In this document: positions 13,598 to 39,865 of the stretch, in pieces
Position numbering within the stretch: the stretch's first letter is position 1
Layout: every line of letters starts with the position of its first letter
Origin: Leptolyngbyaceae cyanobacterium
GTDB taxonomy: Bacteria > Cyanobacteriota > Cyanobacteriia > Phormidesmidales > Phormidesmidaceae
Direction: 5' to 3'
Assembly: GCA_965263355.1 (NCBI GenBank)
Contig: CBDHHL010000056.1
Location: 882,241-922,240 of the forward strand
DNA length: 40,000 bases
Program-made: the position numbers and the translations under genes
The notes under the pieces: generated by a model
The model's input: only the letters and a program-made list of their open reading frames with translations
Databases searched by the model: none
Told to the model about the DNA's origin: nothing

Positions 13598-14392
13598 TTA
13601 AATTTGAGCTTCGAGCACCATTTCGGGATTTGAACTTTCAATATCAATTGAATTTACTGAGGCAAATTCCTGAGCGAGAAGTGTCAATGGATCTAGAAAA
13701 CTGCGTCGTTGGCCATCACCGTTTTGAGAGAATATCCCATGGTCAGCAAATCGGCTTAGCAAATGCAATTCTGTACAACCAACAATAACTGAATCAACCA
13801 CATACTTTTTTCGTAAATGTTCTACAAAATGGCAGGCAGAACGAATTGATATATCATTAGCCTTAACCTGATATATCATCTCATGAACAGCATCTTGATC
13901 AGCCTTATTTGGGGAAAGGATATAGGGTTCAGCCCTACCCCAAAGTGAGCTTCTCGGAAAGATATCTAACTGACGTGTACCATTGGTACAAAGTAACAAA
14001 TGGGTCGTTTTCCGAACAGCCACCTCACTAAGAATCGTATCAATCAAGCAAATCGTTCGGTCTCGAAGATTAAGGGGAAGCTGGGGCAGCAAATAGTGAC
14101 AGGTGATGCAACAAATGACAATTTTCGAAACCTTTAAATCATGCAAATAATTTAAAGCCTCAATCAGTTTGCTCAGCAAAACATCGTAATTTCCAGTCAG
14201 TAATGCTTGAGTCCGATCGGGAAACGTCGGATCAGAATAGGTGACAACCCTGGGTGCCGCCTGTTCACATTTTCCCCTAAGACCATAGGCATAAATTGTC
14301 TTGAGAAATTCTGCAGAGGCCAAGGGACCCATACCGCCTAAAATACCAAGCAGATCTGCTTCTGATGTTGTTGTCGGCTGTAAATACTTCAC
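13598..14392 (-). CDS. Aspartate/glutamate racemase family protein (McyF-like free amino-acid racemase)
   Basis: 264-aa ORF with a GTG start at 14392 and TAA at 13598-13600. Motifs: LGILGGMGPLASAEF, first Cys motif VICCITCHY (C95), second Cys motif VIVGCTELH (C206). It ends 30 nt upstream of the downstream NRPS start. Confidence 0.85.
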   Translation of the reverse strand: MKYLQPTTTSEADLLGILGGMGPLASAEFLKTIYAYGLRGKCEQAAPRVVTYSDPTFPDRTQALLTGNYDVLLSKLIEALNYLHDLKVSKIVICCITCHYLLPQLPLNLRDRTICLIDTILSEVAVRKTTHLLLCTNGTRQLDIFPRSSLWGRAEPYILSPNKADQDAVHEMIYQVKANDISIRSACHFVEHLRKKYVVDSVIVGCTELHLLSRFADHGIFSQNGDGQRRSFLDPLTLLAQEFASVNSIDIESSNPEMVLEAQI

Positions 14393-14455: not shown

Positions 14456-15271
14456 CTACACACTTTGCATTAACCTAGGCTCTTCTAAAGCATCCTTATG
14501 TAAAGCCTCGATTGCTAGACAATTGCGACTAACTAAAAACTCTGGACGACGATTTTCAGTTTTTACAGGTACATTTTCAACACTGTTGTAGGTAATAATG
14601 ACAATATTGCGAGAAAATGGCGAAATATTATTAGCTGACCCATGAATACAGTTAGGGTGAAACAGTAAAACTGACCCTGGTGCACCAGTAGGCGCAATGA
14701 TGCCATGTTTATGCACTAGTTCCGTCACAGTTTGATGGGGCAGCACATACTTCAGATCAGCACTGACATTTGCCTCCCAGCCGTCACCTCGAGCACCAAC
14801 CTGAATTTTTCCTTCCCGATGGGAATCGGGAATTAGAAATAAAGGCCCATTAAACTGATTCACCTCATCTAGAAAGATAAGAATATTCAAAGCCCTCGGC
14901 GCTAGCATCCCATCTTCTTCGGCCCAAAAGATAAAGTCCTGATGCCAGGGCCAGGAGTCTCCAGAAAAAGAGGCTTTCGTATTAATCTTGAACTGGTAAA
15001 CGTAAACTTGGCTTGCCAAAATTTGAATAGCTGGTTGAACCAATCGAGGCAACCGAGTGAGATCGCTCAAAATGCGATTACGGGCGTGGCTTCCATGGAG
15101 AGCCCGTACGGTTTTTCCACTTTTTTCAAAAACCCGTCCAACGTTGTCTTTTTGGATAAGAGAAGGGATTTCCGATCTGAGTAATTCAATTTCAGCAGAT
15201 GAGAAATAGTTGGACAAAAAAAGATATCCATGCTGCTGATAAAATTTTAAGTCTTCATCAGTTAAAAACAT
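14456..15271 (-). CDS. PhyH-family (phytanoyl-CoA dioxygenase / ectoine-hydroxylase-like) Fe(II)/2OG dioxygenase
   Basis: 271-aa ORF with ATG 15271. The N-terminus LTDEDLKFYQQHGYLFL is PhyH-like. SWPWHQDFIFWAEEDGML resembles the EctD signature FxWHSDFETWHxEDG(M/L)P (HxD = H110/D112). A distal His (FHPNCIHGS) and Arg (SPFSRN) are present. Confidence 0.85.
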   Translation of the reverse strand: MFLTDEDLKFYQQHGYLFLSNYFSSAEIELLRSEIPSLIQKDNVGRVFEKSGKTVRALHGSHARNRILSDLTRLPRLVQPAIQILASQVYVYQFKINTKASFSGDSWPWHQDFIFWAEEDGMLAPRALNILIFLDEVNQFNGPLFLIPDSHREGKIQVGARGDGWEANVSADLKYVLPHQTVTELVHKHGIIAPTGAPGSVLLFHPNCIHGSANNISPFSRNIVIITYNSVENVPVKTENRRPEFLVSRNCLAIEALHKDALEEPRLMQSV

Positions 15272-24300: not shown

Positions 24301-27245
24301 GCTAGCAACACCATAAAGAGTGTACAGTTTTGCTGACGGGCTAATTGCTGCAGCGGACCGTAGAGAGCAGGCGCAATTGTCTGGGTTTGACGTCCACCAC
24401 CATAGGTTTTGAGGGCGGGGCGAGAATGGTCGGTGGGTAATTCGAGGACCGGTACACCATGGGCGAATTGACTGACCCAATACTCTCGACTGCGGGCCAT
24501 GGATTCGGTTTGGGACTGGGCGGTCTGGGCCTGAATATACTCAGAAAACTGCATCACAGGCGGCAGCGCTGGAGTTTCACCCTGCAGTGTGGACCGATAC
24601 AGACTGCACAGCTCTTGTAGCAGCAGACCAATGGACCAACCATCCAAGACGATGTGGTGACCACTGAGGACTAAGATATGGTGGTCTTCCGCCAGTTTCA
24701 ACCCATAGACACGAAACAGGGGGCCTTGAGGCAAGTCATAGGGGGTGGCACTATCCTGACGATACCAGGTGGCCAACTGGGCGGCTTGAGCATCCGTAGA
24801 CAGGCCGCTAAAGTCAACCAGTGCCATGGTTACCGGTTGCGATGGTTCAATCTGTTGTGTTCGGGTATCAGTATGGATAACCGTGCGCAGGGCATCGTGG
24901 CGATGGTACAAGATGGCTAAACACTGATTGAGGCAGTCAATATCTAGTCGTCCTTTGAGGCGAAGACTGAGACTCATGCCATAGGCCAGGGCACCTTCTT
25001 CACTGAGTTCTGACAAGACGGCCAACTGTTGCTGCGCCTCAGTCAGGGGCAACGATACCACTGCAGACGATCCCGAAGATGGTTGACTATCACCCAACGC
25101 CTCTGACGCTCTCAATGACGCAAGGGTTGTTAAAAAACCTGCCTGTTTTAGTTCAGCAATACTTTCCTGAACCGCTTGAAACACATATTCAATATCTTCA
25201 TCCGTATGGGCTGTGGAGATAAAACAACTCCGCCCCTCCCAAACATAAACACCTTTATGGATCAGGTGATAATAGAACAAATCTGGATTTTGCTTAATGA
25301 TGAACCGGAAAAGTGAACCAAAGTGAACAACGTCAATCGGGACCTGATGCTCAGCACATAATCTATTCAACCGATTGACCAACTGTTCAGTGCGCTGGTT
25401 GAGTTCACTCTGTAGGTCCGGTCCGGCGTCTTGCAAATGCTTTAACACTGCTCGCGAAGCCGCCAACCCTAATGCATGTTTGTTGAAGGTTCCCCTGAAG
25501 AATGTGCGGAGTGCTTTCGGGTAAGAATCATCGCCATAGTCCCAAGTGCCCCCATCAATGGCGTCCATAAACCGGGATTTGCCAGCGATCGCAGCACCTG
25601 GCAAGCCCCCAACTAGAACTTTGCCATAGGTGGCGATGTCCGCCTGGACACCGAAATAGGCCTGGGCACCACCAGGATGAATGCGAAACCCTGTGACAAT
25701 CTCATCAAAAATAAGTGCAATTCCACAGTCCTGGGTAAGTTGACGCAAATCATGTAGAAACTGCCGTGGTTGCAATGCTGGATTTAGCCCCTGCACAGGT
25801 TCCACTAACACAGCCGCCAATTCAGCGTGATGGTCACGTATTTCTGCCAATGCCGATTTATCAGCATACTCCAGCACCAAAACATTACGCACCGCATCTG
25901 GGTCAATCCCCTGGGCAATGGGGATGGTGTCTGATGTATTCTCCAGGCGCTGTGCTAGAACACCGTCAGAATGCCCGTGGTATGCATTGCGAAAAACAGC
26001 TATTTTTTGACGACCGGTGGCAGTGCGAGCTAAACGGACGGCCACCATAACAGATTCCGTCCCTGACTGGCAGAAGGTAGCGCGTTCGGCTCCCACTAAC
26101 TCACATAGACGCTGCGATACCTCTTGAGCCAACTGGGCTTGAGGACCAACGGAAATACCTAGCTTGGCCTGGGACTCGACGGCCTCGTTAATAAAAGGAA
26201 CATTATGGCCAAAGAGGTGAACCCCAAATCCCATGGCCAAGTCCACATATTTATTGCCATCTAAATCCCAGAAGTTAGCGGCTTGATAGCGTTGAGCCAC
26301 AATGGGATACACCATGTCTTTAGTAGACAGTCGGAGTGATGATTGACCCGCTTGTTTGAAATTACCCAGAACAATATGCCGACCTTTCTGAGTTGTTAAG
26401 CGAAACCCAGCTGCGGATCGGGAATCCGCTAGCACAGGTCGCGACAGTTGTGCCTGCTGCCGAGATTTTTGAGTGCGCTGAGTATACTGAGCAACAAAGG
26501 TATTGAAATAGGCTTGCTGAGTTGGATTTAAGTCTAAGGGAGGTTGGGAGGCAGCTACTTTTGAGGTATGCCCCCTTGCGGGTACAGATTGTTCAGTAAC
26601 TGGGCTTTCGGGTGAGGTCTTTTGCCCATTTTGTAACAAACTACTGACGCCTGACTGCTTTCCTGAGGCGTTAATACCAGTTTCCCTGGCCTGACTTTTC
26701 AACGCCTCAAGTTGTTCAGCCATAAGCTGAGACATGGCTTGAAGCTGTTGATTCATGATGCGTTCTAGCGAGGTCTGGGAGATCTGAGTCAATCTCGTTG
26801 ACCGTTCGCCACTCCCTGGGTGAATGTCCTTAACTGGATTAGCTCCGGGGACAACATTTTCTGGGGACGGCAGCGGGACAGATGGGTTCGATAGATCTGG
26901 GTGGTCAGTGGAGGAAAAAGTCTCTGGTGCCTGGGCATCATGGGGAGATTTCTCTGCGAGATAGGATGCGATCGCATCCAGAGTCGTCAATTCCCCAAAC
27001 AGCTGATGAAGCGATAGCCTAACCCCAAACGTCTGATCGATCTGGTTAACAGCTTCCGTAAACATTAACGAATCCGCCCCCATTTCTAGGAGAGGTGTTT
27101 GCAGATCTATTTCACCTACAGGCAGTTGCAGAATCCTACCAACAAGAGTGCGCAGGCTTTCAATCACCTGCTCTTTCCGCTGGTGATGTCCATTCTGGGA
27201 CCCAGACTGTTCAATGTGATGGGGGGATAATCCGTTTTGGGTCAT
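15384..27245 (-). CDS. Hybrid PKS/NRPS: ACP - class-III aminotransferase - (C-A-T)x3 (modules 1-3 of the peptide)
   Basis: 3953-aa ORF. ATG 27243-27245 is preceded by GGAGAG. It has an ACP (LLEMGADSL) and an AMT (LNPTQQAYFNTF..., FDEIVTGFR, PLP-Lys in ATYGKVLVGG). Three C-A-T modules follow. The protein ends in a T domain plus a basic tail, with no E or TE domain. Confidence 0.97.
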   Translation of the reverse strand: MTQNGLSPHHIEQSGSQNGHHQRKEQVIESLRTLVGRILQLPVGEIDLQTPLLEMGADSLMFTEAVNQIDQTFGVRLSLHQLFGELTTLDAIASYLAEKSPHDAQAPETFSSTDHPDLSNPSVPLPSPENVVPGANPVKDIHPGSGERSTRLTQISQTSLERIMNQQLQAMSQLMAEQLEALKSQARETGINASGKQSGVSSLLQNGQKTSPESPVTEQSVPARGHTSKVAASQPPLDLNPTQQAYFNTFVAQYTQRTQKSRQQAQLSRPVLADSRSAAGFRLTTQKGRHIVLGNFKQAGQSSLRLSTKDMVYPIVAQRYQAANFWDLDGNKYVDLAMGFGVHLFGHNVPFINEAVESQAKLGISVGPQAQLAQEVSQRLCELVGAERATFCQSGTESVMVAVRLARTATGRQKIAVFRNAYHGHSDGVLAQRLENTSDTIPIAQGIDPDAVRNVLVLEYADKSALAEIRDHHAELAAVLVEPVQGLNPALQPRQFLHDLRQLTQDCGIALIFDEIVTGFRIHPGGAQAYFGVQADIATYGKVLVGGLPGAAIAGKSRFMDAIDGGTWDYGDDSYPKALRTFFRGTFNKHALGLAASRAVLKHLQDAGPDLQSELNQRTEQLVNRLNRLCAEHQVPIDVVHFGSLFRFIIKQNPDLFYYHLIHKGVYVWEGRSCFISTAHTDEDIEYVFQAVQESIAELKQAGFLTTLASLRASEALGDSQPSSGSSAVVSLPLTEAQQQLAVLSELSEEGALAYGMSLSLRLKGRLDIDCLNQCLAILYHRHDALRTVIHTDTRTQQIEPSQPVTMALVDFSGLSTDAQAAQLATWYRQDSATPYDLPQGPLFRVYGLKLAEDHHILVLSGHHIVLDGWSIGLLLQELCSLYRSTLQGETPALPPVMQFSEYIQAQTAQSQTESMARSREYWVSQFAHGVPVLELPTDHSRPALKTYGGGRQTQTIAPALYGPLQQLARQQNCTLFMVLLAVYLLLLHRLSGQTEIIVGVPSSGRSMPDSGGMVGYGAHLLPIYSHYRADESFGEYLARVRYTLISAYEHQQYPFAELLSQLQLPPDLSRTPLVSATFNLEAPVQLAPLPELTAELSARPIHYAPYELHCNLIDLGDRLVLDGDYNSDLYEGTTLERWLDHFQTLLRGVVSQPTASISRLPILTAEERHQLLEGWNDTTVDYGPEHCVHRLMEAQVERSPDAVAVVFEAESLTYRQLNERANQLARYLQNQGVKPESRVGICVDRSLEMVVGVLGILKAGGAYVPLDPNYPNERLSHMLQDSGVELLLTQQSLLQSLPSSTVSTICLDTQWPLMSVESTDNVTSAVQADNLLYVIYTSGSTGVPKGIALAHRALTNLIHWHLQTMDVGVGILQFASLSFDASFHEMFAAWCSGGTLFLIPEDHRLDLDKLVHFLAENPIQKAILPVVLWQKLAEVYGDRPLLFSKLTEAIATGEQLQVTPQMIDLFSQLDHCVFHNHYGPSETHVVTSYILPESPAQWSSNPPIGYPIANTQIYLLDSQQQPVPIGVAGELHIGGVSLARGYLNRPKLTNEKFISNPFGPGRLYKTGDLARYLQDGNIEYLGRIDHQVKLRGFRIELGEIEAALSHHPEVNQVVVIAREDQPGDKRLVAYIVNSDTQLEPVDLRQLLKTKLPDYMIPSAFVQLAALPLTPNGKVDRKALPAPDPNLNSIETLVTPQSPSQELIADLFSSILKVHPVGIHQSFFELGGHSLLATQLISRLRQTFELEIPLRILFEAPTIFELDQCVQQLRQENSGLTLPKVTPLPREGQHLPLSWAQERLWFLNQLEEGTAATYNMPAALHLTGSLNVDALEQAFKTLVERHEILRTRFPAVAGLPVQEIVPNQTVAVKREEWFALNSDEWQKHIQRAIQEEARAPFDLAAGPLLRVKLLQHSTEEALLLVTLHHIIADGWSISVLIREVATAYQAVLAGQDLGIAPLPVQYGDYVLWQQLWLQGNVLEQQLAYWRKQLASPPNLLQLPTDYPRPALQSHQGACQDFHFSAQLTQQLEKLSQSSGVTLFMTLLAGFGTLLYRYSGQSDILIGSPIANRNRAEIEPLIGFFTNTLVLRLQLENDLSFAEVLRQVREITLDSYAHQEAPFEQIVEALQPERSLSHAPLFQVMFVFQNTPEEVLELPGLALTSLAPDTLTTKFDLTLSMQLTESGLVGSWEYSTDLFEAKTIARLSGHLQQLLESVVAAPEMSVSRLPLLTPQERNQLLVEWNDTTVEYPHTQCIHQLFETQVKKTPDAVAVTLGSQHLTYRELNQRANQLAHYLKQLGVKPETLVGLYLERSLDMMVGLLGILKAGGAYVPLDPNYPKQRLLYMLQDAAAPVLLTQETLMAGLPSHDSQVVCLGRDESKIAACSTEPVACDVHPDNLAYVIYTSGSTGQPKGVEINHQGLTNYLYWCVTTYFNSKGIGALVHSSIGFDATITGLFSPLLVGQTVFLLSADSDIEALATALQSSERLSLVKLTPAHLKLLAFLLPAEKLAHQTQAFVIGGEALTNDIISPWLTHAPETRLINEYGPTETVVGCCTYDVSPNDHLTTSIPIGRPIANTQLYILDAQLQPVPIGVVGELYIGGDGVARGYRNRPELTAQKFIPNPFGSGRLYKTGDLTRYLVDGKIEFLGRLDHQVKIRGFRIELGEIESILSSHPKVQQVIVIARDDNQADPQLVAYVVSQDNQLTSGELRDFLTGQLPTYMLPSAFVQLETLPLTPNGKVDRKALPVPTFEPNLDGDFMAPRTPTEESIATIFASVLGLDSISIHSSFFELGGHSLLATQAIAKLRDTFQLELPLRELFEAPTVAELDQRIQQALTGQSRRAIAPMTAVPRDADIPLPLSWSQERLWFLEQLDGSNAAYSIPVALKITGQIDIVALESALSGVIARHESLRTTFPMVEGKPIQAIAPISDLSIPIEDLSNSSAEQHPEILQQSINAEAQAPFSLAKGPLLRLRLLRLTPQSNVLLLTLHHAIFDGWSSEILIREFVTLYGAYQQRQISPLVPLVNQYADYAYWQRHVLSDTLDSQLSYWKQHLSGDLPVLRLPTDSTNLKKINNEGARCSCLLSVSLSQKLKALSQRENVTLFMALLAAFNLLLSRQTDQTDIIIGTPIAGRQHPGTTDLIGFFINTLPIRVDLSGITTFQDLLSHVREVTLAAYSNQDVPFEQLVKILQPERSLERHPIFDVMLNLMQPTATALEMEGLEFEMLEMPELESKFWITLYVYEPRDDESTGLTLELVYRRSLFSAERMEIFLDQFKALLEQIVLLPDQPIQNYSLLTPKTKSLLPDPVLPLEEPQFSPITDLIRSWSNQQPEHIAITQAEQSWTYQQLFNYAEHVAENLIKAGVKTGDVVAVYGNRCFELIVHIVGILLSGSVLLTLDPNLPTQRLQLMVQAANVGYLIALDSESPKDWLSASIKLLAGSDIKPVDKRSPQENHSVDDIHRSLPHVHGEQPAYIFFTSGSTGMPKGVMGSHKGIAHFVDWQRETFQVGPGDRVAQLIRLSFDALLRDIFLPLTSGATLCLPPDDEVSSEHLLRWLENEKISVIHTVPTVAQYWISNAPNDVTLSTLRATFFSGEPLTDTLIGQWKQAFPGSGKLINLYGATETTMVKSYYPIPEQVRPGIQSVGWPLPQTQNLVLRAVNQPCGIGEIGEIVVRTPFRTFGYINTSATSNPCFVPNPFRSDQEDLLYYTGDQGRYLPDGSLEVLDRLDGQLKIRGTRVQPGEIESRLHQHPDVGQTVIVGRINPDGNQVLVAYIVPKTPQGIDRDQLNTYLLKQLPAHLIPSVYMELTSLPLTASGKVDRNALPDPEFTIRRPLSVPPRNPTEISLANIMGDILKQDSIDIHDSFFALGGHSLQATQVVARISQTFGLELSLRTFFESPTVAALAQIVADHQQGKKNTESTTSNLIPKRRRRKIQRSADGTLIVPDNLKEELWGKDKP
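15537..18689 (-). other. NRPS module 3 (C-A-T), divergent A domain with DARH-type pocket
   Basis: C: LHHAIFDGWS. A: AYIFFTSGSTGMPKG, LSFDALLRD, NLYGATETTMV, LKIRGTRVQPGEIE, LTASGKVDR; all of these differ from the other five A domains. The hand-extracted pocket is D-A-R-H-F-S-L-M-V-K. T: FFALGGHSLQATQ. Confidence 0.85.
18762..21878 (-). other. NRPS module 2 (C-A-T), Asn-type pocket
   Basis: C: LHHIIADGWS. A: AYVIYTSGSTGQPKG, GFDATITG, VKLTPAH, FVIGGE, NEYGPTETVVGC. The hand-extracted pocket is D-A-T-K-V-G-E-V-G-K, identical to the classical Asn code. T: FFELGGHSLLATQ. Confidence 0.85.
21951..25052 (-). other. NRPS module 1 (C-A-T), substrate unassigned
   Basis: C: SGHHIVLDGWS. A: LYVIYTSGSTGVPKG, FDASFHE, NHYGPSETHVVT. 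The hand-extracted pocket is D-A-H-I-I-T-H-V-V-K. Its tail resembles Pro-type codes (I-x-H-V-V-K), but positions 236/239 do not. T: FFELGGHSLLATQ. Confidence 0.85.
22891..22898. repeat. HIP1 palindrome GCGATCGC
   Basis: Exact 8-mer read at these coordinates. Confidence 0.9.
25131..26534 (-). other. Class-III PLP aminotransferase (AMT) domain, GSA-aminomutase-like
   Basis: aa ~238-705: LNPTQQAYFNTFVAQYTQRTQKSRQ, CQSGTESVM, FDEIVTGFR, PLP-binding Lys in DIATYGKVLVGG. Confidence 0.88.
25585..25592. repeat. HIP1 palindrome GCGATCGC
   Basis: Exact 8-mer read at these coordinates. Confidence 0.9.
26691..26768 (-). repeat. Helix motif copy 2 (ACP-AMT linker): LERIMNQQLQAMSQLMAEQLEALKSQ
   Basis: aa 160-185. 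See copy 1 at 27531-27608. Confidence 0.8.
26952..27173 (-). other. ACP domain 2 (carrier for the KS-AT encoded by the upstream gene)
   Basis: aa ~25-98 of the 3953-aa ORF: VIESLRTLVGRILQL...LLEMGADSLMFTEAVNQI (Ser59). Confidence 0.85.
26968..26975. repeat. HIP1 palindrome GCGATCGC
   Basis: Exact 8-mer read at these coordinates. Confidence 0.9.
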
Positions 27246-27431
27246 ACCTGCAAACTCTCCTGTTGTAGCCCAGTAGCGTCTTTTTATATAGCTGTCGCAG
27301 TATTTTAATTGTCAGGCCATAGAACTCCGAAAATATTAAAGCAGCAAAAAGTAAAAAATTGGTAAAACTCGACCATTGGCTAATACTTGTGTCAGTAAAT
27401 ACATGTTTCAAAAACTACAAAAGGGCAAACA

Positions 27432-30663: not shown

Positions 30664-33600
30664 CTAATCTCCCTCCAGCGCTTTTGCTAATTTTTTACTA
30701 ATCAAATCATCTAAACTCTCTTCTGATAATGTCCGCAGCTGATCAGAAAGTTCGGGTATTTCAGATGGGGATTCCACATCAACGCTAGAGACATCAAAAT
30801 CGGCATGGGAAAGATCAGGATTATTAGCGGCTCCCCATTCTAAAACGTCGACCATAATATACTTGGCCAAACTTAAAATATTAGGATGTTCAAAAATGAG
30901 CACAGTCGGCAAGGCTATTGCTAAACTGGCTTCTAACTTGTTTTTGAGCGCTACCGCCATAAGGGAATCCATACCCATATCAAAGAATCCGCGATGGGGA
31001 TCGATCAACGATGCGCCTTCCCGGTGACCAAGTGCTTGCGCAACAGTCCGTTGTAAATAAAGCACCACCTGCTCTTGGCGCTCATCCATCTGGGGGATTT
31101 TCTCTAGCTCTTGCCACAATTCATCTTGCTGCCCCAAATTGATTTGATTATCCCCATGGCCGATTTCAGTGAGGAGACGCTTACCGGTAGTACTCTCATA
31201 CAGAGGCTTGAAGATCGACCAGTCCATCTCAGCTACAATCAGGTTGGTTACCGGACCTGATGTTGAGCTATTTTGACGATCCGGCAGAATAAATCCGCCT
31301 GCTACATCAAGTAAATTCTCAGGTGTGGTGAGATGCAAGCCAATTTGAGTTGTATACTTTTCACCTTCAGGCGATGCCAACGCCATGCCGCCACCCGCTA
31401 AGGCCCCCACATTAACCGTCAGACCAGGTAAATCCAGCTGTTGCCGATAAGTAGCAAAGATATCGAGGAAGTAATTGGCAGCGGCATAATGTCCCAACCC
31501 CTGGGAACCAAAGATGGGAGACATGGAAGATGTGCAGAAGAAGAAATTCAGATCCAAATCGAGGGTCAGCTGATGCAGATTCCAGGTGCCCCAAACCTTA
31601 GGACGCAGCATTGCTGTTAAATCAGTCTCTGTAATCTCTGGAATGGTCTTTTGCTGTGTTGCCCCTGCAATGTGAAAAATCCCTTTAATGGGTGGTGCGA
31701 TCGCTTGCACTGTCTCAATGGCTTCTGCCATCGCCGCTGCATCCGCGACATCAGCCTGCAAGACCTGAACATTGACACCGTTCTGTTGTAATGTTTCGAT
31801 CACCTGCAAGGCTCGACCAGAAGGGGCTCGACGACCAGTTAATGCCAGGGACTTAACGCCCTTACTAGCTAGCCACTGGGCACTTCCCAGGCCGAAGTGT
31901 CCCAATCCGCCGGTAATAAGATAGGTCGCATTGGTGCTGAAGGTAATGGCTTCGGGGGGTACCTGCGTTTTTGCACTACGAACCAATCGCACGATGTAGC
32001 GCTGGCCATTGCGGAACACAATCTGAGCGTCAGCGCTAGGGCTGGAGGGTCTGAGGAGCTGATGTTGCAGTTGCTGAACGCTCCCAGAGAGCGGAGCCGT
32101 ACTGTCAAGATCGATGAGTCCACCCCAGAACTGAGGAAATTCAGTGGCAGCAACTCGGCCTAACCCCCACATGGGCGCTTGGGCAATTGAGCGTGGTGTT
32201 ATTTCTGCAGCGGTCTCCCCACCGACCGTTTGCACGTCTTCTGTGATAATCCAAAGCTTAGGAGGAGACGTTGTTGCCAGGTTGGCATTGGGGGTGACTG
32301 TGGTGACCGATTGGACTAGATGTAACAGACTGGTGACGGTCAATGCCTGGTCAGCTTGTAGGCTCGCCAGGGTAGTTTTCTGGCTGGGGGTAACGTCTAA
32401 ACTCCAGAGGTGAATAATCCCCTTGCAAGGGGGTTTATCCGCCGACAACAATTGTTTGAGGAGATTATCCATCGCCCTAGGATCGGTTGGGTCCAGGCTG
32501 TGAATAGAGGAACGCTCTAGCCCAATGTCAGCAGGCGTGTCGATGATTTCGGATGTTTCAGCGCCTTGACAATATACCAACTCACAGACATGTCCCTGGT
32601 TCTGAAGCTGGGTAGCAAGGGTGGTGCCAAGGTTTTTGCGATCGCAAAAAATAATCCAACGCCCCGTTGCCTCTTCCTTTACTCTGTCGTCTGTGGCACC
32701 AATATCGTCCAGGGGAGCCAGCTGCCATACCAACTCATACAACCAGTCATGGCCTAACGGTGGGGTTTGGTCAGAGTCGGCCATGGGGCTAGTCCGTTGC
32801 ATCTGTAGCCCCAACACTTCAACCGTCACCTCGCCAGCAGCGTTGAAGATACGCACATCCCCCTGAATCGTATCTTGATTCTCTCCACCGAGCTGTTTTA
32901 AGACAGCATGGCTCCACCCTTCTCTCCCCAAAGGTCCATGCACCTCAAAACTATCAATTCTTGTGGGCAAATAAAGAGAATCTGGCTCCGAGAACCCGTT
33001 ATCAAGCCCATCATTACCGTCTGGGGGACTACTGCCTCCTAGCGGGGTAAACAATGTAGCCCCCAACACCTGATGACAAGCATCCAGCACAGGTGCATAG
33101 ACCTCCAGGGCATTGGTATTTGCCACGATCCCCGCTGGCGTTTTTATCTCAGCCAAAACCTCCTGGTGCCCCAGCCAAAATTGCTGGATGCCCCGGTAGG
33201 TTTCTCCTAGCTGCAGACCGTGCTTTGCCAGGAGCTGATAGAAGTCTGCGCCACTCTGACGAGCTTGACAACGGGCACGTACCTCTTCGAGGCTAGCTTT
33301 GGCAATACTGGAGTTGCCTACCGACGTAGCGCCTTGACTGGCCGACGACCTGACCAGATTGTCATAGGCTCCACTGTCTGCCACTGATACCCGTTGGACA
33401 TCCACCTGACGATACCGTTCTTTTAATTCGTTCAGGTAAGGTAAATGCTCAATCACCGCTTGCTTACTGGGTCCAAAGTCCAGCAAACAGGCAATCTCAT
33501 CAACCCCAATCTGATCGAGATCCCTCACCAGCTCCAAACAACTCTCGGGTGTTCCAATTAGCCCCCTGGAGGTGGCAAAGCGCTCGTACAGGAAATTGAC

Positions 33601-34449
33601 AAATGTATCGAGATCGCGCTCCGACAATGTGGCGAAGTCAATATCTTGTCCTCGACTCTGGGCCAACCCCCGCAGTAAGCCAATATTAGATTTGAGATAG
33701 TCACAGTAGGGCTTACGGGCCTGTTCGCAGACTGTCGCAAATTCCTCACCGACAAAGGTATGTAACATCAGGGAAACAATCCCCGCTTCGGGATCATGAC
33801 CATGTTTGGCCCGTGCCTGCCGATAGAGGGCAATCTTTTCCGCCAGGGGTTCAATACCCTGATCGAGTAAATGGGTCAGTAAATTAGCACCGATTTTCCC
33901 GGCGTTAGCAAAGGTTTGGGGATTACTCGCTGCGGTGATCCAAATGGGCAGTTGGGGCTGAATTGGTGTGGGATAAATGCGCACCGTTGTGGGTTGTCCC
34001 TTGCCATTGGTAACAGCAATGCTCTCCCCTTGCCAGAGTTGATTTAAGGTGATGATGTTTTCAAACAACAGCTGATGCCGCTGTTCATAAACCTCTGGAC
34101 ACCAGGCAAAGTCATCGGGGTTCCAGCCCGAGGCCAGGGAAATACCCACCCGACCATTAGACAAATTGTCCACCATAGCCCAAGCTTCTGCCAGGGCCAG
34201 GGGATGGTGTAATGGCATAACAACGCTGCCTGCCTGCAGCCGAATACGCTCGGTTACCTGGGACAACGCCGCATTTAAGACCGCTGGATTGGGGTATAAA
34301 CTCCCAAACTGGGTAAAGTGACGCTCCGGGGTCCAAATGCTGGAAAAGCCGTGCTCATCACCAAACTTAGCGCTGTCGATTACCAGACCGTATTTCTCGT
34401 CAGCCAGGGCATCTTCAGTGCTGGCAAAAAACATAAGACCAAATTTCAT
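30664..34449 (-). CDS. PKS subunit: luciferase-like monooxygenase - DH second half - KR - ACP
   Basis: 1261-aa ORF. ATG 34447-34449 lies 4 nt after the upstream TAG. It contains an LLM domain (MKFGLMFFAS...LHHPLALAEAW...), DH C-half motifs (HGLQLGETYRG, VLDACHQV, LYLPTRIDSF), a KR (YLITGGLGHFG, GHYAAANYF) and an ACP (FFDMGMDSL). The C-terminus is an acidic docking tail. Confidence 0.93.
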   Translation of the reverse strand: MKFGLMFFASTEDALADEKYGLVIDSAKFGDEHGFSSIWTPERHFTQFGSLYPNPAVLNAALSQVTERIRLQAGSVVMPLHHPLALAEAWAMVDNLSNGRVGISLASGWNPDDFAWCPEVYEQRHQLLFENIITLNQLWQGESIAVTNGKGQPTTVRIYPTPIQPQLPIWITAASNPQTFANAGKIGANLLTHLLDQGIEPLAEKIALYRQARAKHGHDPEAGIVSLMLHTFVGEEFATVCEQARKPYCDYLKSNIGLLRGLAQSRGQDIDFATLSERDLDTFVNFLYERFATSRGLIGTPESCLELVRDLDQIGVDEIACLLDFGPSKQAVIEHLPYLNELKERYRQVDVQRVSVADSGAYDNLVRSSASQGATSVGNSSIAKASLEEVRARCQARQSGADFYQLLAKHGLQLGETYRGIQQFWLGHQEVLAEIKTPAGIVANTNALEVYAPVLDACHQVLGATLFTPLGGSSPPDGNDGLDNGFSEPDSLYLPTRIDSFEVHGPLGREGWSHAVLKQLGGENQDTIQGDVRIFNAAGEVTVEVLGLQMQRTSPMADSDQTPPLGHDWLYELVWQLAPLDDIGATDDRVKEEATGRWIIFCDRKNLGTTLATQLQNQGHVCELVYCQGAETSEIIDTPADIGLERSSIHSLDPTDPRAMDNLLKQLLSADKPPCKGIIHLWSLDVTPSQKTTLASLQADQALTVTSLLHLVQSVTTVTPNANLATTSPPKLWIITEDVQTVGGETAAEITPRSIAQAPMWGLGRVAATEFPQFWGGLIDLDSTAPLSGSVQQLQHQLLRPSSPSADAQIVFRNGQRYIVRLVRSAKTQVPPEAITFSTNATYLITGGLGHFGLGSAQWLASKGVKSLALTGRRAPSGRALQVIETLQQNGVNVQVLQADVADAAAMAEAIETVQAIAPPIKGIFHIAGATQQKTIPEITETDLTAMLRPKVWGTWNLHQLTLDLDLNFFFCTSSMSPIFGSQGLGHYAAANYFLDIFATYRQQLDLPGLTVNVGALAGGGMALASPEGEKYTTQIGLHLTTPENLLDVAGGFILPDRQNSSTSGPVTNLIVAEMDWSIFKPLYESTTGKRLLTEIGHGDNQINLGQQDELWQELEKIPQMDERQEQVVLYLQRTVAQALGHREGASLIDPHRGFFDMGMDSLMAVALKNKLEASLAIALPTVLIFEHPNILSLAKYIMVDVLEWGAANNPDLSHADFDVSSVDVESPSEIPELSDQLRTLSEESLDDLISKKLAKALEGD
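30850..31077 (-). other. ACP domain 1
   Basis: aa ~1125-1200: VVLYLQRTVAQALG...GFFDMGMDSLMAVALKNKLE (Ser1162). Confidence 0.85.
31697..31704. repeat. HIP1 palindrome GCGATCGC
   Basis: Exact 8-mer read at these coordinates. Confidence 0.9.
32639..32646. repeat. HIP1 palindrome GCGATCGC
   Basis: Exact 8-mer read at these coordinates. Confidence 0.9.
32785..33297 (-). other. DH C-terminal hot-dog half
   Basis: aa ~385-555: FYQLLAKHGLQLGETYRGIQQFW (GYxYGPxF-type motif), YAPVLDACHQV (DxxxQ/H motif; the Asp codon 33082-33084 was checked as GAT), LYLPTRIDSFEV. Confidence 0.7.
33415..34449 (-). other. Luciferase-like (FMN-dependent) monooxygenase domain of the PKS/NRPS-embedded type
   Basis: aa 1-~345 of the 1261-aa ORF: MKFGLMFFASTED...FSSIWTPERHF...LYPNPAVLNAAL...MPLHHPLALAEAWAMVDNLSNGRVGISLASGW. 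The N-terminus is the native start of this domain family. Confidence 0.85.
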
Positions 34450-34453
34450 GTCC

Positions 34454-37400
34454 CTATTTTCCCCCCTTTACTGCTGTCATCCGTCCGGCAGAGCCATTCC
34501 TGGTAGATCTCATTGGCATCTCTCCTGATGATTTAGGGGGACCGGCACCGATGGACTTGCGCCGACTGACATTGGCATCGGCATACAGCGTCCAATCCTC
34601 TGCTGCATCGCCTTGAGTCAGTCGGCAGCTATAGATCTGCAGCTGGCATTGATCGGCTGCTCGGGGGGTCAAGACCACCTGTACCCGTTGATCCCCCTGG
34701 CTGGATAAAAACAGGGGATAGTAAAGCTTGAGGTTGGTAATTTGATTCCAGGGTTCCTGAAACGCCGCCTGGGTCGCCTCCAGGGCAATTTGCAAATAAC
34801 CAGTATGGGGCATAATCACCGTGTGCCAGACCTGATGATCCTTAAGCCAGGTGAGATAGGTGTCATCGACAACAACATCCCAAACATACGCATCAGCCCA
34901 GGGAGCCGGAGGAGACAAGCGGTACCCTAAAATTGGGTGGCGCTCTCCAGAATAGAGTGATGATTTCCTAATGTCTGGGTCAGATATTGAACTGGCTGCA
35001 GAATCACACCAATAGCGCTGTCGCTGGAACGGATAGGTAGGTAGGGCAATTTTTTGACGTTGGGGTGCATCCGGATAAACACCGTGCCAATTGATTTTCA
35101 CACCTCTTATGTACAGCTCACCCAGGCTCGTGAGCATTTGTTGCCAGTCATTTTGTCTAGGTCTTAGGCTAGGCAACCAGGCTTTTCCATCTGCCGGTAA
35201 AAACTGTTGCCCCATGCCCAACAAAATCGGCTTTGGTCCACATTCAAGAAAGATATCACAGGTTTGATGTAGTGACTTGATGCCTGCTGCAAAATTAACG
35301 GGAGAAAGGATGTGCTGGCACCAATAGTCAGGGCTGGCAACAGCATCTGTTGCCAGCTGCCCCGTGATATTGGAAACAAACTTACGTTGGGGCAGAGCGT
35401 AACTGACCTGTTGAGCCACTGCCTTAAACTCCGCTAACATGGGTTGCATTAACGAAGAGTGGAAGGCGTGGGAGACCTGTAGTATTTTATGCTTCACGCC
35501 ATCCTTATCTAACTGGGTGACAATACCCTGAACAGCAGACTCCGGACCAGAGATAACAGTACTGCTGGGGCCATTGATAGCTGCGATCGCAACCGTCTCC
35601 TCTCCAGACAATGCAATGGCTGCCCTAACTCGCTCCACTGAGGCCATCAGGGAAACCATCCCCCCCCCTGATGGTAACTGTTGCATCAATCGACCGCGGG
35701 CGGCAATCAGCTTCAGTCCATCCTCCAGACTAAAGACGCCTGCGGCCCAGGCAGCCACATACTCGCCAACACTATGCCCCATAAAGACTGTAGGCTCGAT
35801 TCCCCATGACTCCCACAGTTGATACAACGCATACTCTAGAGAAAACAATGCAGGCTGCGCATAGGCCGTTTGGTGAATCAGCGTTGCCGTATTAGATGAG
35901 CCATTACTTGAACTATCACTGGGGTGTTGAGGATACAACACTTGCAACAATGGGATGTCCAGCCAGGCATCTAGAATCTCACTACACCGATCCAATGCCT
36001 GACGAAAAACCGACTGTGTAGCATAGAGTCGTTTACCCATATCTACATACTGGGAACCTTGTCCCGTAAATAGACAGGCAATTTGGAGAGATTTCTGCAG
36101 ATTGACACCCCCATTGCTTTTGAGATAGCCAACTGCCTCTTCCTGACAAACAACTGCTTCGAGTTGCTGAGTTAGCTTCTGAACCGAATCATGCACCAAG
36201 GCTAATCGATGATCAAAATGGGACCGCCCCGTATTGGCACTGAAACAAAGATCGACAACAGAGACGTCAGGATGGTGAAGCAAAAACTCACGATATCGCT
36301 GCGCTAAGGCCCGCAATGCACCCTCATCTTTAGCAGAAATTGTCAATAGATGAAGGTCATGTTGTAGCACAGAGGCCCCCAAGCTGTTTGTCTGACAATC
36401 AGGGCCAGAGCCCGCAAGCTTGGCAATACCAGCTAGTCCAGACAAGACCACATGGGCATTGGTACCGCCAAACCCAAAGGAACTTATCCCCGCGACCCGA
36501 CCTGTTTCAAGGGGCCAGTCTGTCAGGGCTGTGGGAATCTTTAAAGGCGTATTCTCTAACTTGATATAAGGATTTAGTTGCTTGAAGTGTAAATGGGGGG
36601 GAATCCGACCATAGTGCAAAGATAAGACCACTTTAATCAACCCTGCAATACCCGCTGCAGCTTCTAAATGGCCAATATTGGTTTTGAGAGAGGCAATCCA
36701 ACAAGCCGAATCCTGCTCTCTCTCCTGCATCAGTACGGTTTTAAGCGCATTCATCTCAATGGGATCTCCCAGGGATGTACCGGTGCCGTGTGCCTCTACA
36801 TAGCTCACCTGGGAAGGTTCTACACTCGCATTGTTAAGTGCCTGACGAATCACATCCTGCTGGGCGAGGCCATTGGGAGCTGTTAGACCATTACTACAGC
36901 CATCCTGGTTAATGGCTGAGCCTAAAATAACCCCGAAAATAGAATCGTTATCTGCGATCGCGTCTGCCAGACGCTTGAGCACTACCATTCCACACCCTTC
37001 CCCTCGCACATAGCCATTGGCATCCGCGTCAAAGGCCTTACAACGGCCATCAGGAGCCATCATCTGGGCCAGAGAAAAGGTGGTTGTAAGCTGATGCGTC
37101 AGCATTAGATTAACGCCTCCCACAAGGGCCAGGGAACATTCCTCCTGTCGTAGACTTTGACAGGCCTGGTGAACCGCCACCAGGGAAGAGGAACAGGCAG
37201 TATCGATGGCCAAACTAGGACCCCGAAAATCAAAGGCATAGGAAAGGCGATTGGCTGCAATACTCAGGGCATTGCCGGTGCCAACATAGGCATTAAGTTG
37301 ACTCAAATCATTGAGCTGCAGTTGAGCATAATCTGACGTACTAATGCCGACAAACACCCCTGTTTGACTACCTGCCAGATCGGCTGGGGCCAAATTCGCA

Positions 37401-39865
37401 TTTTCTAAAGCTTCCCAGCTCACTTCTAAAAGCAGCCGCTGCTGTGGATCTAAGCTGGTAGCCTCGCGGGGAGAAATACTGAAGAACTCTGCATCAAACT
37501 GATCAACATCACTCAAGAATCCTCCCCATCGACTGGTATTGAGTCCAGCAAGTGCACTGACATTCCAACGCTCATCGGGCACTTGAGTAATGGCATCCTG
37601 CCCAGTTTGTAGCAATTCCCAGAATGCCTCCGGAGTGGGCGCCCCTGGAAAGCGACAGCCAACACCAATGATGGCAATCATGTCTGGATCGACCTGAGGG
37701 GAACCCAACCCATTTGATGCAGGGGAAGAGGAGGGCACTTGATTTGCCTGGGCTGGGGAGGACACTGAATCACCAGACAAATATTGCGTCAAATTGGCCA
37801 GGGTTGGATAGTCGTAAAGCAATGTAGGGGAAATCTCTTGCCCTAGCCAATCTTGCAACTGCCCCGATAATCCCACCGCTACCGCAGAACTGAGCCCATA
37901 GTGGGCCAAGGGTTCATAAATATCAATCTCATGGGGAGCCACCTGCAATTGTGCCGCCACCTGAGCAATTAACCAAGCCTGAATCGTTCCTGCATCGGGA
38001 AAATCAAGCACTTTAACGGGCTGCTTTTCCACCTTTGGTAAAGGAACTCGGCTTGTTTCACCCAGCTGCCAACTCGCAACAGAATTCAAGCCATCGTTGG
38101 CAAATTCAGCTTGACATGTTCGTCGCCTCACCTTGCCGCTGGATGTTTTCGGCAAACTACCCGGCTTTAGCAGTTGAACTGCATATAGGGGTAAATCATG
38201 GTACTCAGATACAGCCCTGCGCATCTGGCAAAAAATCTCATCAGGAGCCAGTTTGCGCAAATAGCGACGCTCCACTTCATGAACCACCACCAGCTGTTCT
38301 TGTCCTTCAATTTCAAGTCCAAAAGCGGCCCCACCACCCGCTCGCAGGGCCGAATGACTGCGCTCAATGGTCAATTCAATATCCTGGGGGTAGTGATTTC
38401 GTCCCTGGATAATAATAAGATCCTTAATCCGTCCAGTGACAAAGAGTTCTTTATCTCGAAAAAAACCTAAATCACCTGTTCGCAAAAATGGTCCTTCTCC
38501 GGTGTCTGCAGTAAAGGCTTGAAAGGTCTCTCTTGTCTCCTGAGGGCGTTGCCAATACCCCTGGGCAACATTGCCACCTGCCACCCAAATTTCACCTACC
38601 TGCTCAGGCAAACAGCGGGTTAAATCTTCAGGATTAACAATAATAATCTCTTGCTCTAACCAGGTTTGCCCACATCCAACAATCCCTTTACTATAAAGCT
38701 GTTTAACAGCTTGATTTTCATCGGCTACAACTACTTGGTTCTGACTTAACGCATCCTCCTGAACCTCGAAGATCACGGGTGCTTGTGCCTTTAATCCTCC
38801 CGAAACCAACAAACTGGTTTCTGCCATACCATAACAAGGATAAAAGGATTGCCAATGAAACCCACAGGACTCAAAAGTAGCTGAAAACCTCCGTAAGGTG
38901 TCTTCCCGTACGGGCTCTGCGCCACTATATGCTACATCCCAAGAACTCAAGTCTAGGCTCGCTCGTTGTTCAGCAGTAGTTCTCTGAATACACAACTCAT
39001 AGGCAAAATTAGGGGCACCACTGGTGGTGGCACGATAGTGGGAAATAGCCTGCAACCACCGCAACGGTTTTTGTAAAAATGCAACCGGTGGCATTAGAGC
39101 ACAAGGAATACCTAAATAAAGAGGCTGCAGAACATTACCAATCAATCCCATATCATGATGTAGGGGAAGCCAACCGACAAAAATAGTCTGATCGGTATGC
39201 CCAAAGGCAGCCTCAATCATGCGTTCGTTGTACATCAAATTGGCATGGGTCAGCATGACGCCTTTTGGAGTACCGGTTGACCCAGATGTGTACTGCAGGA
39301 ATGCCAATGTTTTTGCAGTGATACCGGCATCTTGCCAGGGGAACACCTGCTCGGTGAGAAGATCCTTATCAGTCACCAACCATTGAACAGGAGAAGAACA
39401 CCCAGGAGACACTAAATGCAACTGGAGTTGCGCCAATAACTTGGTGGTTGTAAGGACTACACTAGCATCAGCATCGGCAACAATGGCCTGCAGTCGGATT
39501 GCATTCCGGTTAGCCCGAGGAGGATATGCAGGCACAGCAACCAAGCCTGCATAGAGACAACCAAAAAAGGCCGCTATAAATTCAAGACTTGACGGATAAA
39601 CCAGGAGTGCGCGCTCCCCTGGAGTGCAGGTCTGCCGAAGTTGAGCAGCAATGACACGAGCCTGACAATCCAGCTCTAGATAAGTTAAACGACCCGATTC
39701 AGACTCCCCATCTTGGAGAAAAATATAAGCAGTTTGGTGCGGTTGATGCTGGGCTCGATAGCGCAACAGATCTATCAATGTATCGGAACAAGCTGGCCTG
39801 CTCGAACTACATTCCTCATCTAGATAACTCTTGCCTGAATTCGCCCTCATTGATATCTTCACCAA
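34454..39865 (-). CDS. Loading/first-extension PKS: FAAL - ACP - KS - AT - DH first half
   Basis: 1803-aa ORF. The ORF-track start is TTG at 39865, and the first ATG is at 39848-39850. It contains a FAAL ([51 protein letters not shown]), an ACP (YGLSSAVAV), a KS (DTACSSS, EAHGTGT, NIGHLE) and an AT (GHSVGE, HAFHS). Only the N-terminal hot-dog half of a DH follows. Confidence 0.95.
34568..34939 (-). other. DH N-terminal hot-dog half only
   Basis: aa ~1643-1766: HPILGYRL...[27 protein letters not shown]. The catalytic His codon is at 34835-34837 (checked: CAT on the minus strand). A 37-aa basic tail and the stop codon follow. Confidence 0.75.
35186..36082 (-). other. AT domain 1 (malonyl-type)
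   Basis: aa ~1262-1560: [26 protein letters not shown] (the HAFH motif associated with malonyl-CoA selectivity). Confidence 0.85.
35583..35590. repeat. HIP1 palindrome GCGATCGC
   Basis: Exact 8-mer read at these coordinates. Confidence 0.9.
36440..37687 (-). other. KS domain 1
   Basis: aa ~727-1142: [13 protein letters not shown], active-site Cys in IDTACSSS (C891), [19 protein letters not shown]. Confidence 0.9.
36954..36961. repeat. HIP1 palindrome GCGATCGC
   Basis: Exact 8-mer read at these coordinates. Confidence 0.9.
37775..37993 (-). other. Loading ACP
   Basis: aa ~625-697: [13 protein letters not shown]...[25 protein letters not shown]. The serine motif is GLSS rather than GxDS. 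Confidence 0.75.
38096..39784 (-). other. FAAL (fatty acyl-AMP ligase) domain
   Basis: aa ~28-590 of the 1803-aa ORF. Adenylation core motifs are present, plus the FAAL-typical [20 protein letters not shown] and the [10 protein letters not shown] tail. An ACP follows directly. Confidence 0.85.

Follow-up and report, generated by a model that had tools for sequence, protein, structure and literature searches.

The window analysed here is a stretch of 40,000 nucleotides (nt) from a Leptolyngbyaceae cyanobacterium (GenBank assembly GCA_965263355.1, contig CBDHHL010000056.1, positions 882,241 to 922,240), whose minus strand carries a complete lipopeptide cluster that combines polyketide synthase (PKS) with nonribosomal peptide synthetase (NRPS) genes and is primed by a fatty acyl-AMP ligase (FAAL). 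Its first PKS module is divided between two consecutive proteins. Protein 1 carries FAAL, acyl carrier protein (ACP), ketosynthase (KS) and acyltransferase (AT) domains and ends with DHn, the N-terminal hot-dog half of a dehydratase (DH), while protein 2, which is identical to the database protein P0121, opens with a luciferase-like FMN monooxygenase (LLM) followed by DHc, the C-terminal hot-dog half, a ketoreductase (KR) and an ACP. An earlier note, made from the letters of this DNA, had described the arrangement as one DH fold carried by two proteins with the LLM between its halves, and both Pfam and the alignments with solved DH structures agree with that description. The features of the locus are collected in Table 1.

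The profile comparison that the earlier note had proposed places PF21089 in protein 1 and PF14765 in protein 2, each of them covering one DH half. Against solved structures, DHn aligns to residues ~4-142 of the GphF, CurK and AlnB DHs and DHc to residues ~132-302 of the CurJ, CurF and CurK DHs (E 4.3e-16 for CurJ DH 135-302); on these alignments, DHn and DHc are complementary, non-overlapping halves of one double hot-dog. DHn has the expected HPLL-type opening (here HPIL) as well as the His and the Pro of the HxxxGxxxxP motif, the Gly of which is replaced by His (34823-34825), and DHc has both the YGP-type Tyr and the DxxxQ/H motif. Recomputing the coordinates returned the codons of the catalytic His and Asp and the Gly-to-His replacement exactly as previously claimed. 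What the two halves do not share is a polypeptide, as they are separated by a stop codon, 4 nt, the 345-residue LLM and linkers. The C-terminal tail of protein 1 occupies the position where the linker joining the hot-dog halves starts, and its predicted local distance difference test score (pLDDT) in the model described below is <50; the return linker from the LLM to DHc is also of low model confidence, and its length differs among homologues. Past DHc, the structural region of the KR precedes the catalytic subdomain from about residue 567 (NF047870 KR prefix, residues 568-667). No docking element is visible in the translations of the protein 1 C-terminus or the protein 2 N-terminus.

Table 1. 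Features of the divided PKS module and of the surrounding lipopeptide cluster in the window (aa, amino acids; C-A-PCP, condensation-adenylation-peptidyl carrier protein; TE, thioesterase).
Feature	Positions	Strand	Basis
Protein 1, FAAL-ACP-KS-AT-DHn, 1803 aa, TTG start, TAG stop	34454-39865	minus	open reading frame (ORF), Pfam, NCBIfam
DHn, N-terminal hot-dog half, protein 1 aa 1643-1746, begins at HPIL	34628-34939	minus	PF21089, profile 1-102 of 103, E 1.4e-19
Catalytic His codon (His1677), HxxxGxxxxP motif	34835-34837	minus	computed coordinates
57-aa basic Gly/Ser-rich C-terminal tail past the last DHn strand	34457-34627	minus	translation
Junction: TAG stop (34454-34456) and 4-nt spacer GGAC (34450-34453), then protein 2 ATG	34450-34456	minus	sequence
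Protein 2, LLM-DHc-KR-ACP, 1261 aa	30664-34449	minus	ORF, Pfam, NCBIfam
LLM, FMN monooxygenase domain, protein 2 aa 1-345	33415-34449	minus	TIGR04020, Bac_luciferase
Return linker from LLM to second hot-dog half, protein 2 aa 346-383	33301-33414	minus	between LLM and PS-DH matches
DHc, C-terminal hot-dog half, protein 2 aa 384-561	32767-33300	minus	PF14765 (PS-DH), E 2.5e-25
Tyr418 codon of the YGP-like motif (reads YRG)	33196-33198	minus	computed coordinates
Catalytic Asp codon (Asp456), DxxxQ motif (DACHQ)	33082-33084	minus	computed coordinates
Gln460 codon of DxxxQ	33070-33072	minus	computed coordinates
Catalytic KR subdomain, protein 2 aa 841-1018	31396-31929	minus	PF08659, E 1.1e-58
Module 1 ACP, protein 2 aa 1132-1198, Ser of DSL at aa 1162	30856-31056	minus	PF00550, E 1e-13
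Module 2 KS-AT protein, 1076 aa	27432-30662	minus	Pfam
ACP-aminotransferase-(C-A-PCP)x3 protein, 3953 aa	15384-27245	minus	Pfam
Class-III aminotransferase domain, aa 313-670 of the 3953-aa protein	25236-26309	minus	PF00202, E 1.2e-50
PhyH dioxygenase	14456-15271	minus	domain search
Asp/Glu racemase	13598-14392	minus	domain search
(C-A-PCP)x3-TE	3098-13567	minus	domain search
JmjC/cupin hydroxylase	2120-3016	minus	domain search
AT3-SGNH acyltransferase	1-1962	minus	domain search

That protein 2 opens directly with the native N-terminus of an LLM, as had been noted, is borne out by the match to TIGR04020 (MupA/Atu3671), which covers residues 3-343 and begins at the first position of the model (positions 1-341; 490.1 bits for a cut-off of 244.45); the Bac_luciferase match of Pfam spans residues 1-318 and the TIM barrel starts at residue 1 (MKFGLMFF). 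This LLM is related to the OX domain of PuwE (PDB 6KET), with an E value of 2.8e-117 and 48-55% identity, and its modelled structure superposes on 6KET with a TM score of 0.92 (rmsd 2.8 Å, 345 columns) and a pLDDT mostly >90. The 2-hydroxyl of 3-amino-2-hydroxy fatty acids is attributed to PuwE-type Ox domains (PMC4219810), and MupA was shown in vitro to alpha-hydroxylate an ACP-bound thioester (PMC10952193). From MupA, PuwE and the lipid of occidiofungin discussed below, we infer that the LLM of protein 2 carries out FMN-dependent alpha-hydroxylation of a carrier-protein thioester.

Two AlphaFold models were examined for the DH itself. In the one-chain model comprising DHn, the tail, the LLM and DHc, the pLDDT of the LLM and of DHc was 85-98 (85-95 for DHc) and that of DHn ~45, the latter being low because no sequence in the model input covered DHn. 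When DHn and DHc were joined without the LLM, the model reached a pLDDT of 68.5 and a predicted TM score (pTM) of 0.59, and its best matches in the PDB were all PKS DH domains, aligned over ~280-330 columns (CurJ, E 1e-14). This joined model supports the order of the DH fold, and nothing more.

The junction between the two proteins reads ...AAAGGGGGGAAAA TAG GGAC ATG AAA. A G6A4 homopolymer at 34457-34466 (G6 at 34461-34466) adjoins the TAG of protein 1, and with one G fewer in the G6 run protein 1 would continue in frame into the LLM with no stop between them; the split and the fused states are thus one indel apart. L083, a homologue with 72% identity that comes from an independent marine metagenome, shows the same succession of TAG, 4 nt and ATG with a shorter G run, an identical HxxxGxxxxP-type motif with His for Gly and a similarly long basic tail, and in the closest genome locus (L051, Calothrix anomala) stop and start overlap as ATGA at the same domain boundary. 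This comparative evidence argues strongly against an assembly error at the junction.

The layout recurs far beyond this clade. The search with the LLM-DHc protein gave 3357 relatives at E<=1e-20, among which every match with PS-DH begins at the LLM, and more than 100 database proteins start with LLM-DHc. An artificial query made of DHn, tail, LLM and DHc was also used; its best 120 matches, P0121 among them, cover 58-78% of the query, and all are without DHn. Most of these 120 are LLM-DHc-KR-ACP proteins of 1050-1270 residues, the variants being LLM-DHc-ACP, LLM-DHc-cMT, LLM-DHc-ACP-TE and LLM-DHc-ACP-C. We then took one genome per species, which gave 78 loci, about 25 of them with an LLM followed by DHc. 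In this survey of fused and split versions, which the earlier note had called for, 21 loci have an upstream ORF that terminates with DHn and a stop between DHn and the LLM, and DHn-LLM-DHc forms a single reading frame at four loci (L012, L018, L020 and L026, from two Vicinamibacterales, one other member of the Acidobacteriota and Bradyrhizobium oligotrophicum) and in the protein P0236. The split loci come from Cyanobacteria, Ktedonobacteria, Streptomyces, Burkholderia, Acidobacteriota, Bacteroidota (Lewinella), Myxococcota and Corallococcus, spanning at least six phyla; at their junctions, stop and start overlap as ATGA, the frames overlap by as much as 35 nt, or a spacer of between a few and a few dozen nt intervenes, reaching 314 nt in L009, and the C-terminal tails of the other upstream proteins have 8-45 residues, the sequence of which is not conserved. 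In a crude neighbour-joining tree of LLM domains, built without support values, the fused forms occupy at least two positions. Since both split loci and fused single-frame versions exist, the simplest history suggested by these comparisons is that an LLM entered the loop joining the two hot-dog halves and that the gene was afterwards cut at the boundary between DHn and the LLM in most lineages, that of the window included. The cutting at the N-terminal edge of the insert would then have been repeated or early, and the DH remnants would have decayed or been lost in some lines.

Several observations on individual members accompany this survey. The LLM lies directly between AT and KR, with no DH halves detected, in P0027, in P0257 and in the second LLM modules of L051, L012 and L083. 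P0027 (AT-linker-LLM-KR) and P0257 (linker-LLM-KR-ACP) have the LLM fully in place of the DH, and the tree places P0027 together with the fused forms of the Acidobacteriota. A second LLM is found downstream in related clusters (L051, 11984-13021; L012, 16437-17459; L013, 19116-20144; L083, from 17256), in a KS-AT-LLM-KR context without detectable DH halves in L051 and L012, opening the downstream NRPS protein together with a KR in L083, and after an NRPS condensation domain in L013, so that the oxygenase is used within the same pathways both with and without flanking DH halves. In the large protein database a single fused protein was found, P0236; its DHc has Gly at the position of the catalytic Asp, and the neighbouring PKS genes on its contig (L082) are fragmented into numerous short ORFs, suggesting that the assembly is prone to frameshifts. 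In Scytonema sp. PCC 10023 (L001, 1-322; L002, 1-294), only the last ~50 residues of DHn remain (ending …ISFSIYSRLANNSADAWICHATGKIDNEHQLIGA and a stop) upstream of an LLM-DHc-ACP gene, with an in-frame stop before the remnant and IS605-family genes nearby; the partner gene is probably truncated there, so that these loci say nothing about the partner protein.

Among 195 LLM-DHc proteins, the position of the DH catalytic Asp is occupied by D in 163 and by E in 16 (the Asp being lost in ~16%), the Asp+4 position by Q in 88, R in 76 and L in 17, and the position of the YGP Tyr by F in 130 and Y in 19. Of 27 DHn halves, 21 have the His; in the other six its place is taken by Asn (L007), Tyr (L012, L022 and L026) or Ser (L047), or it is lost (L018). 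One residue of the dyad is missing from four of the five fused forms. Decay of these residues is thus seen in several lineages, especially in the fused Acidobacteriota clade. Closest to the canonical pattern are the window and its nearest relatives, which keep His, Tyr, Asp and Gln and depart from it only at the motif Gly; this clade-specific change (His in the window and in L083, Asp in L051) falls close beside the catalytic His, at a position where most other members have Gly. A subgroup of LLM-DHc-ACP proteins devoid of KR (P0004, P0007, P0008, P0016, P0025, P0032 and P0039) shows WDNC in place of LDACxQ; in such modules dehydratase action by the DH is ruled out, and the substrate of the LLM is probably a beta-keto thioester. 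Because losses of His or Asp and KR-less members occur, the dyad is dispensable for this type of module, and in the window itself no release from selection is obvious. Judged from these losses, from the KR-less subgroup and from the LLM modules without DH, DH catalysis is not generally required in modules of this type; catalysis by the His/Asp dyad of the window is possible.

A counterpart with a known product is found in the biosynthesis of the antifungal occidiofungin (burkholdine). On chromosome 3 of Burkholderia sp. LMG 32019 (L008), genes for a thioesterase, an epimerase, an aminotransferase and a TauD protein are followed by PKS proteins of 1467 residues (FAAL-ACP-KS-linker-DHn) and 1107 residues (LLM-DHc-KR-ACP) and by a protein opening with KS-KR-ACP-KS-AT. 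The published ocf table lists ocfN, ocfM, ocfL and ocfK, then ocfJ (4428 bp), ocfI (3324 bp, "flavin-dependent monooxygenase") and ocfH, a hybrid NRPS-PKS gene (PMC9494966); synteny and protein sizes agree with ocfJ and ocfI, and by this comparison L008 matches an occidiofungin-type cluster. Near-identical proteins of 1107 residues are annotated from B. contaminans, B. ambifaria, B. vietnamiensis and B. ubonensis. At L008, as in the window, the upstream protein ends with DHn and the next one opens with the LLM followed by DHc-KR-ACP, the identity over LLM-DHc being ~50%, and the annotation of the cluster in PMC9494966 makes no mention of a split DH in OcfJ/OcfI. OcfJ is listed in the literature as an "NRP synthetase", while the L008 sequence at 5601-10004 encodes FAAL-ACP-KS-DHn, with the KS and the KS-AT linker present and the AT domain absent before DHn. 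NAA2, the lipid of occidiofungin, is a C18 acid that bears C3-NH, C5-OH, C6-OH and C7-O-xylose of 3R,5R,6S,7S configuration (PMC10897925). Assuming a C12 starter and three extensions, C7 would be the beta carbon of module 1 (KR), C6 its alpha carbon (LLM) and C5 the beta carbon of module 2 (KR), C3 being aminated after module 3. From the product structure and the domain order, the OcfJ/OcfI architecture would then yield an alpha,beta-diol without net dehydration. In both systems the result would be a polyhydroxylated beta-amino fatty acid destined for a cyclic lipopeptide (the one of the window being predicted), with the aminotransferase acting later in the line. They differ in that OcfJ has no AT (KS-linker-DHn) whereas the window has a cis AT, that the Ocf DHc has DxxxR and a Phe in the YGP motif instead of DxxxQ and Tyr, that an extra KR module places the Ocf oxygens at C5-C7 rather than at the predicted C4-C5, and that the Ocf aminotransferase stands alone whereas that of the window lies within a megasynthase protein. 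A second characterised example was sought in hassallidin, which contains a 2,3-dihydroxy fatty acid, and was rejected because the texts consulted give only hasG, hasH and hasL as its lipidation genes and mention no LLM-PKS.

Other known systems share one or another of these elements. In the PKS for the 3-aminononanoate of cremimycin, the DH is divided between CmiP3 and CmiP2, and the artificially joined domain is active (PDB 6K97, "Fusion DH"; PMC11284099). Like the module of the window, it is a cis-AT DH on two consecutive polypeptides, and 6K97 matches the halves of the window in order (DHn to residues 60-176, DHc to 200-267). Nothing is inserted between the cremimycin halves, however, and they form an active dehydratase on whose enoyl product the pathway depends, whereas in the window a 345-residue LLM precedes DHc, the product would by analogy keep its beta-oxygen and the downstream logic (KS-AT, then ACP-aminotransferase) needs no enoyl intermediate. 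The OX domain of PuwE (puwainaphycin), MicD (microginin), RmyA (ralsolamycin) and the Ox of floridanemamide and tychonamide belong to the same LLM subfamily and work in FAAL-primed PKS-NRPS lines making hydroxylated beta-amino fatty acids, as predicted for the window; unlike the LLM described here, these domains adjoin the aminotransferase in the last PKS module, giving 2-hydroxy-3-amino acids, have no flanking DH halves and do not lie at a protein N-terminus. MupA and the trans-AT bimodules of mupirocin, calyculin and oocydin use a TIGR04020 LLM on the alpha carbon adjoining a KR-derived hydroxyl (PMC10952193), in modules that are also divided between polypeptides. MupA is, however, free-standing and recruited to a KS0-ACP bimodule, and the splits fall between domains rather than within one. 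In the window the LLM is covalently fused inside the module, both PKS modules have a cis AT (PF00698, E 2e-54 and 6e-47) and Pfam finds no KS0-ACP pair among them, so that the locus is neither a trans-AT alpha-hydroxylation bimodule nor an oxygenase split module of that kind. The monooxygenase (MOX) domain of MtaG and MelG (myxothiazol and melithiazol) is an LLM-type enzyme lying inside an A domain (C-A-MOX-A-T-TE) and alpha-hydroxylates the tethered unit (PMC11411415), but its host is an unsplit NRPS adenylation domain and the outcome is oxidative cleavage to a terminal amide. Finally, in the myxoglucamide pathway an FMN monooxygenase adds the alpha-oxygen to an intermediate whose beta,gamma double bond stems from a DH (PMC13638107). 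All individual elements, namely LLM Ox domains, a split DH and the insertion of an LLM into another domain (MtaG/MelG), are therefore known. The literature searched yielded no account in which a DH carries an inserted LLM, or in which the two-protein DH that results is described as a recurrent architecture. The uniqueness implied by the earlier note, on the other hand, does not hold, given the more than 100 proteins starting with LLM-DHc, OcfJ/OcfI, the fused versions and the cis-AT split DH of cremimycin.

The reading we favour, and hold to be probable if only modestly so, is that module 1 is an alpha-hydroxylating module of the OcfJ/OcfI type, in which the DH halves reassemble, dock the two subunits and mount the LLM, and whose lipid is a 3-amino-4,5-dihydroxy acid. 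DHn and DHc would associate non-covalently into a double hot-dog, which would join protein 1 to protein 2 in place of conventional docking domains and hold the LLM in the DH slot, within reach of the module 1 ACP. The fatty acyl starter would undergo one malonate extension by module 1, after which the reduction of the beta-keto group by the KR and the hydroxylation of the alpha carbon by the LLM, in either order, would give a 2,3-dihydroxyacyl-ACP with no net dehydration, by analogy with occidiofungin. Module 2 (KS-AT and ACP-aminotransferase) would extend this product, and its aminotransferase would turn the beta-keto into a beta-amino group. The combination of LLM alpha-hydroxylation and KR in module 1 with transamination in module 2 thus predicts a 3-amino-4,5-dihydroxy fatty acid, which would be handed to a six-residue NRPS; the C4 oxygen that the earlier note expected on the fatty acid is supported by the same occidiofungin analogy. 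Of the two mechanisms the note had put forward, a scaffold that docks the proteins and positions the oxygenase fits the comparative data better, because the His is lost in 6 of 27 DHn halves, KR-less members and LLM modules without DH exist and occidiofungin keeps its beta-oxygen; cooperation between DH and LLM is less favoured but may occur in the window, where His, Tyr, Asp and Gln are all retained.

Several points weigh against this reading. In the models bearing on the putative reassembly of the halves, the pLDDT of DHn is low (~45-60), and the geometry of the joined model is poor despite the right fold order (TM 0.41-0.50 against solved DHs, 0.47-0.50 for the alignments of about 320 columns). 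The full set of His, YGP Tyr, Asp and Gln in the clade of the window suggests selection for an active site. OcfJ and OcfI likewise keep His and Asp (HxxxGxxxxP in OcfJ, the DHc Asp in OcfI), and a route of dehydration followed by reoxygenation to the diol is compatible with the product. The function of OcfI is here assigned from product structure and domain logic. Lastly, the cremimycin split DH is catalytically active once its halves are joined (PMC11284099).

The strongest alternative, which we regard as doubtful, is a DH that, once reassembled in trans, has catalytic activity and cooperates with the LLM. The KR and the DH would produce a 2-enoyl or an isomerised 3-enoyl thioester, then oxygenated by the LLM peroxyflavin either through nucleophilic epoxidation opened to a diol or through dienolate alpha-hydroxylation to a 4-hydroxy-5-ene; or else the His/Asp pair of the DH would serve as the base enolising the thioester for the LLM. 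The retention of the four motif residues in the window and its closest relatives, the presence of the His in 21 of 27 DHn and of the Asp in 84% of DHc across phyla, the dehydration of the substrate by the connected cremimycin DH (PMC11284099) and the interplay of DH and FMN oxygenase in myxoglucamide (PMC13638107) all speak for such a role, but the beta-oxygen of occidiofungin (C7-O-xylose) is kept beside the LLM-derived C6-OH, for which direct alpha-hydroxylation is simpler, MupA and PuwE-type LLMs act without a DH, the KR-less members and those lacking His or Asp show the dyad to be dispensable for the module type, and the glycine of HxxxG is His or Asp in the clade of the window. A composite active site, in which the dyad enolises or dehydrates the ACP-bound intermediate and the LLM oxygenates the resulting enolate, enoyl or dienolate, seems to us rather unlikely. 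It would represent a previously undescribed "dehydratase-assisted oxygenase" chemistry that gives a stereodefined vicinal diol or a 4-hydroxy-5-ene, and it would explain the retention of the dyad in most members.

It is improbable that the DH halves are vestigial, with neither docking nor catalytic function, the proteins meeting through other contacts (LLM-AT, KR-KS) and the LLM alone setting the chemistry. The AT-LLM-KR modules without detectable DH halves (P0027, P0257 and the second modules of L051 and L012) and the decay of catalytic residues, notably in the fused Acidobacteriota, would fit this view; against it, both half-folds are kept, recognisable and at full length, at all the split loci examined, which represent more than six phyla and have DHn always as the last upstream domain, no other docking element is visible at either terminus, and the two-chain double hot-dog is a known stable assembly, as in cremimycin. 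Least of all do we credit the view that the gene is really single and fused, its stop and start being due to faulty sequencing or assembly or to a recent pseudogenising frameshift, as the G6A4 run before the stop, the fusion of the frames by a one-G deletion and the existence of naturally fused homologues are outweighed by the identical layout with a shorter G run in L083, by the split at the same boundary with differing junction sequences in L051, L004, L005 and ~17 further loci, and by the more than 100 database proteins that begin at the LLM methionine.

Together, these comparisons identify the layout as a widespread but little-described means of equipping fatty-acid chains with an additional hydroxyl. 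They indicate that a cis-AT module can gain a tailoring domain through the inter-hot-dog loop of its DH with its architecture undisturbed, and that the gene can be cut at the edge of the inserted LLM, where fold complementation would then keep the subunits together. For engineering, the site would offer a natural and portable intramodular split and possibly a non-helical docking device, and the system is tractable for studying fold complementation as a means of docking. For genome mining, a protein ending with PKS_DH_N followed by one starting with LLM-PS-DH-KR-ACP would predict an alpha,beta-dihydroxy unit. The layout could also account, at the level of domains, for the C6 hydroxyl in the lipid of occidiofungin, and for the window it predicts, by analogy, an unreported lipopeptide with a 3-amino-4,5-dihydroxy fatty acid from a probably marine cyanobacterium.

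Elsewhere in the cluster, module 2 is divided too: its KS-AT protein is followed by a gap of 186 nt (27246-27431) and then by the ACP-aminotransferase protein, which corresponds to an intramodular split between AT and ACP with an unusually long intergenic spacer. The tailoring genes encode an AT3-SGNH O-acyltransferase, a JmjC/cupin hydroxylase, an Asp/Glu racemase and a PhyH dioxygenase, which suggests hydroxylated and D-configured acidic residues in the peptide as well as O-acylation, the target of the latter being possibly a lipid hydroxyl.

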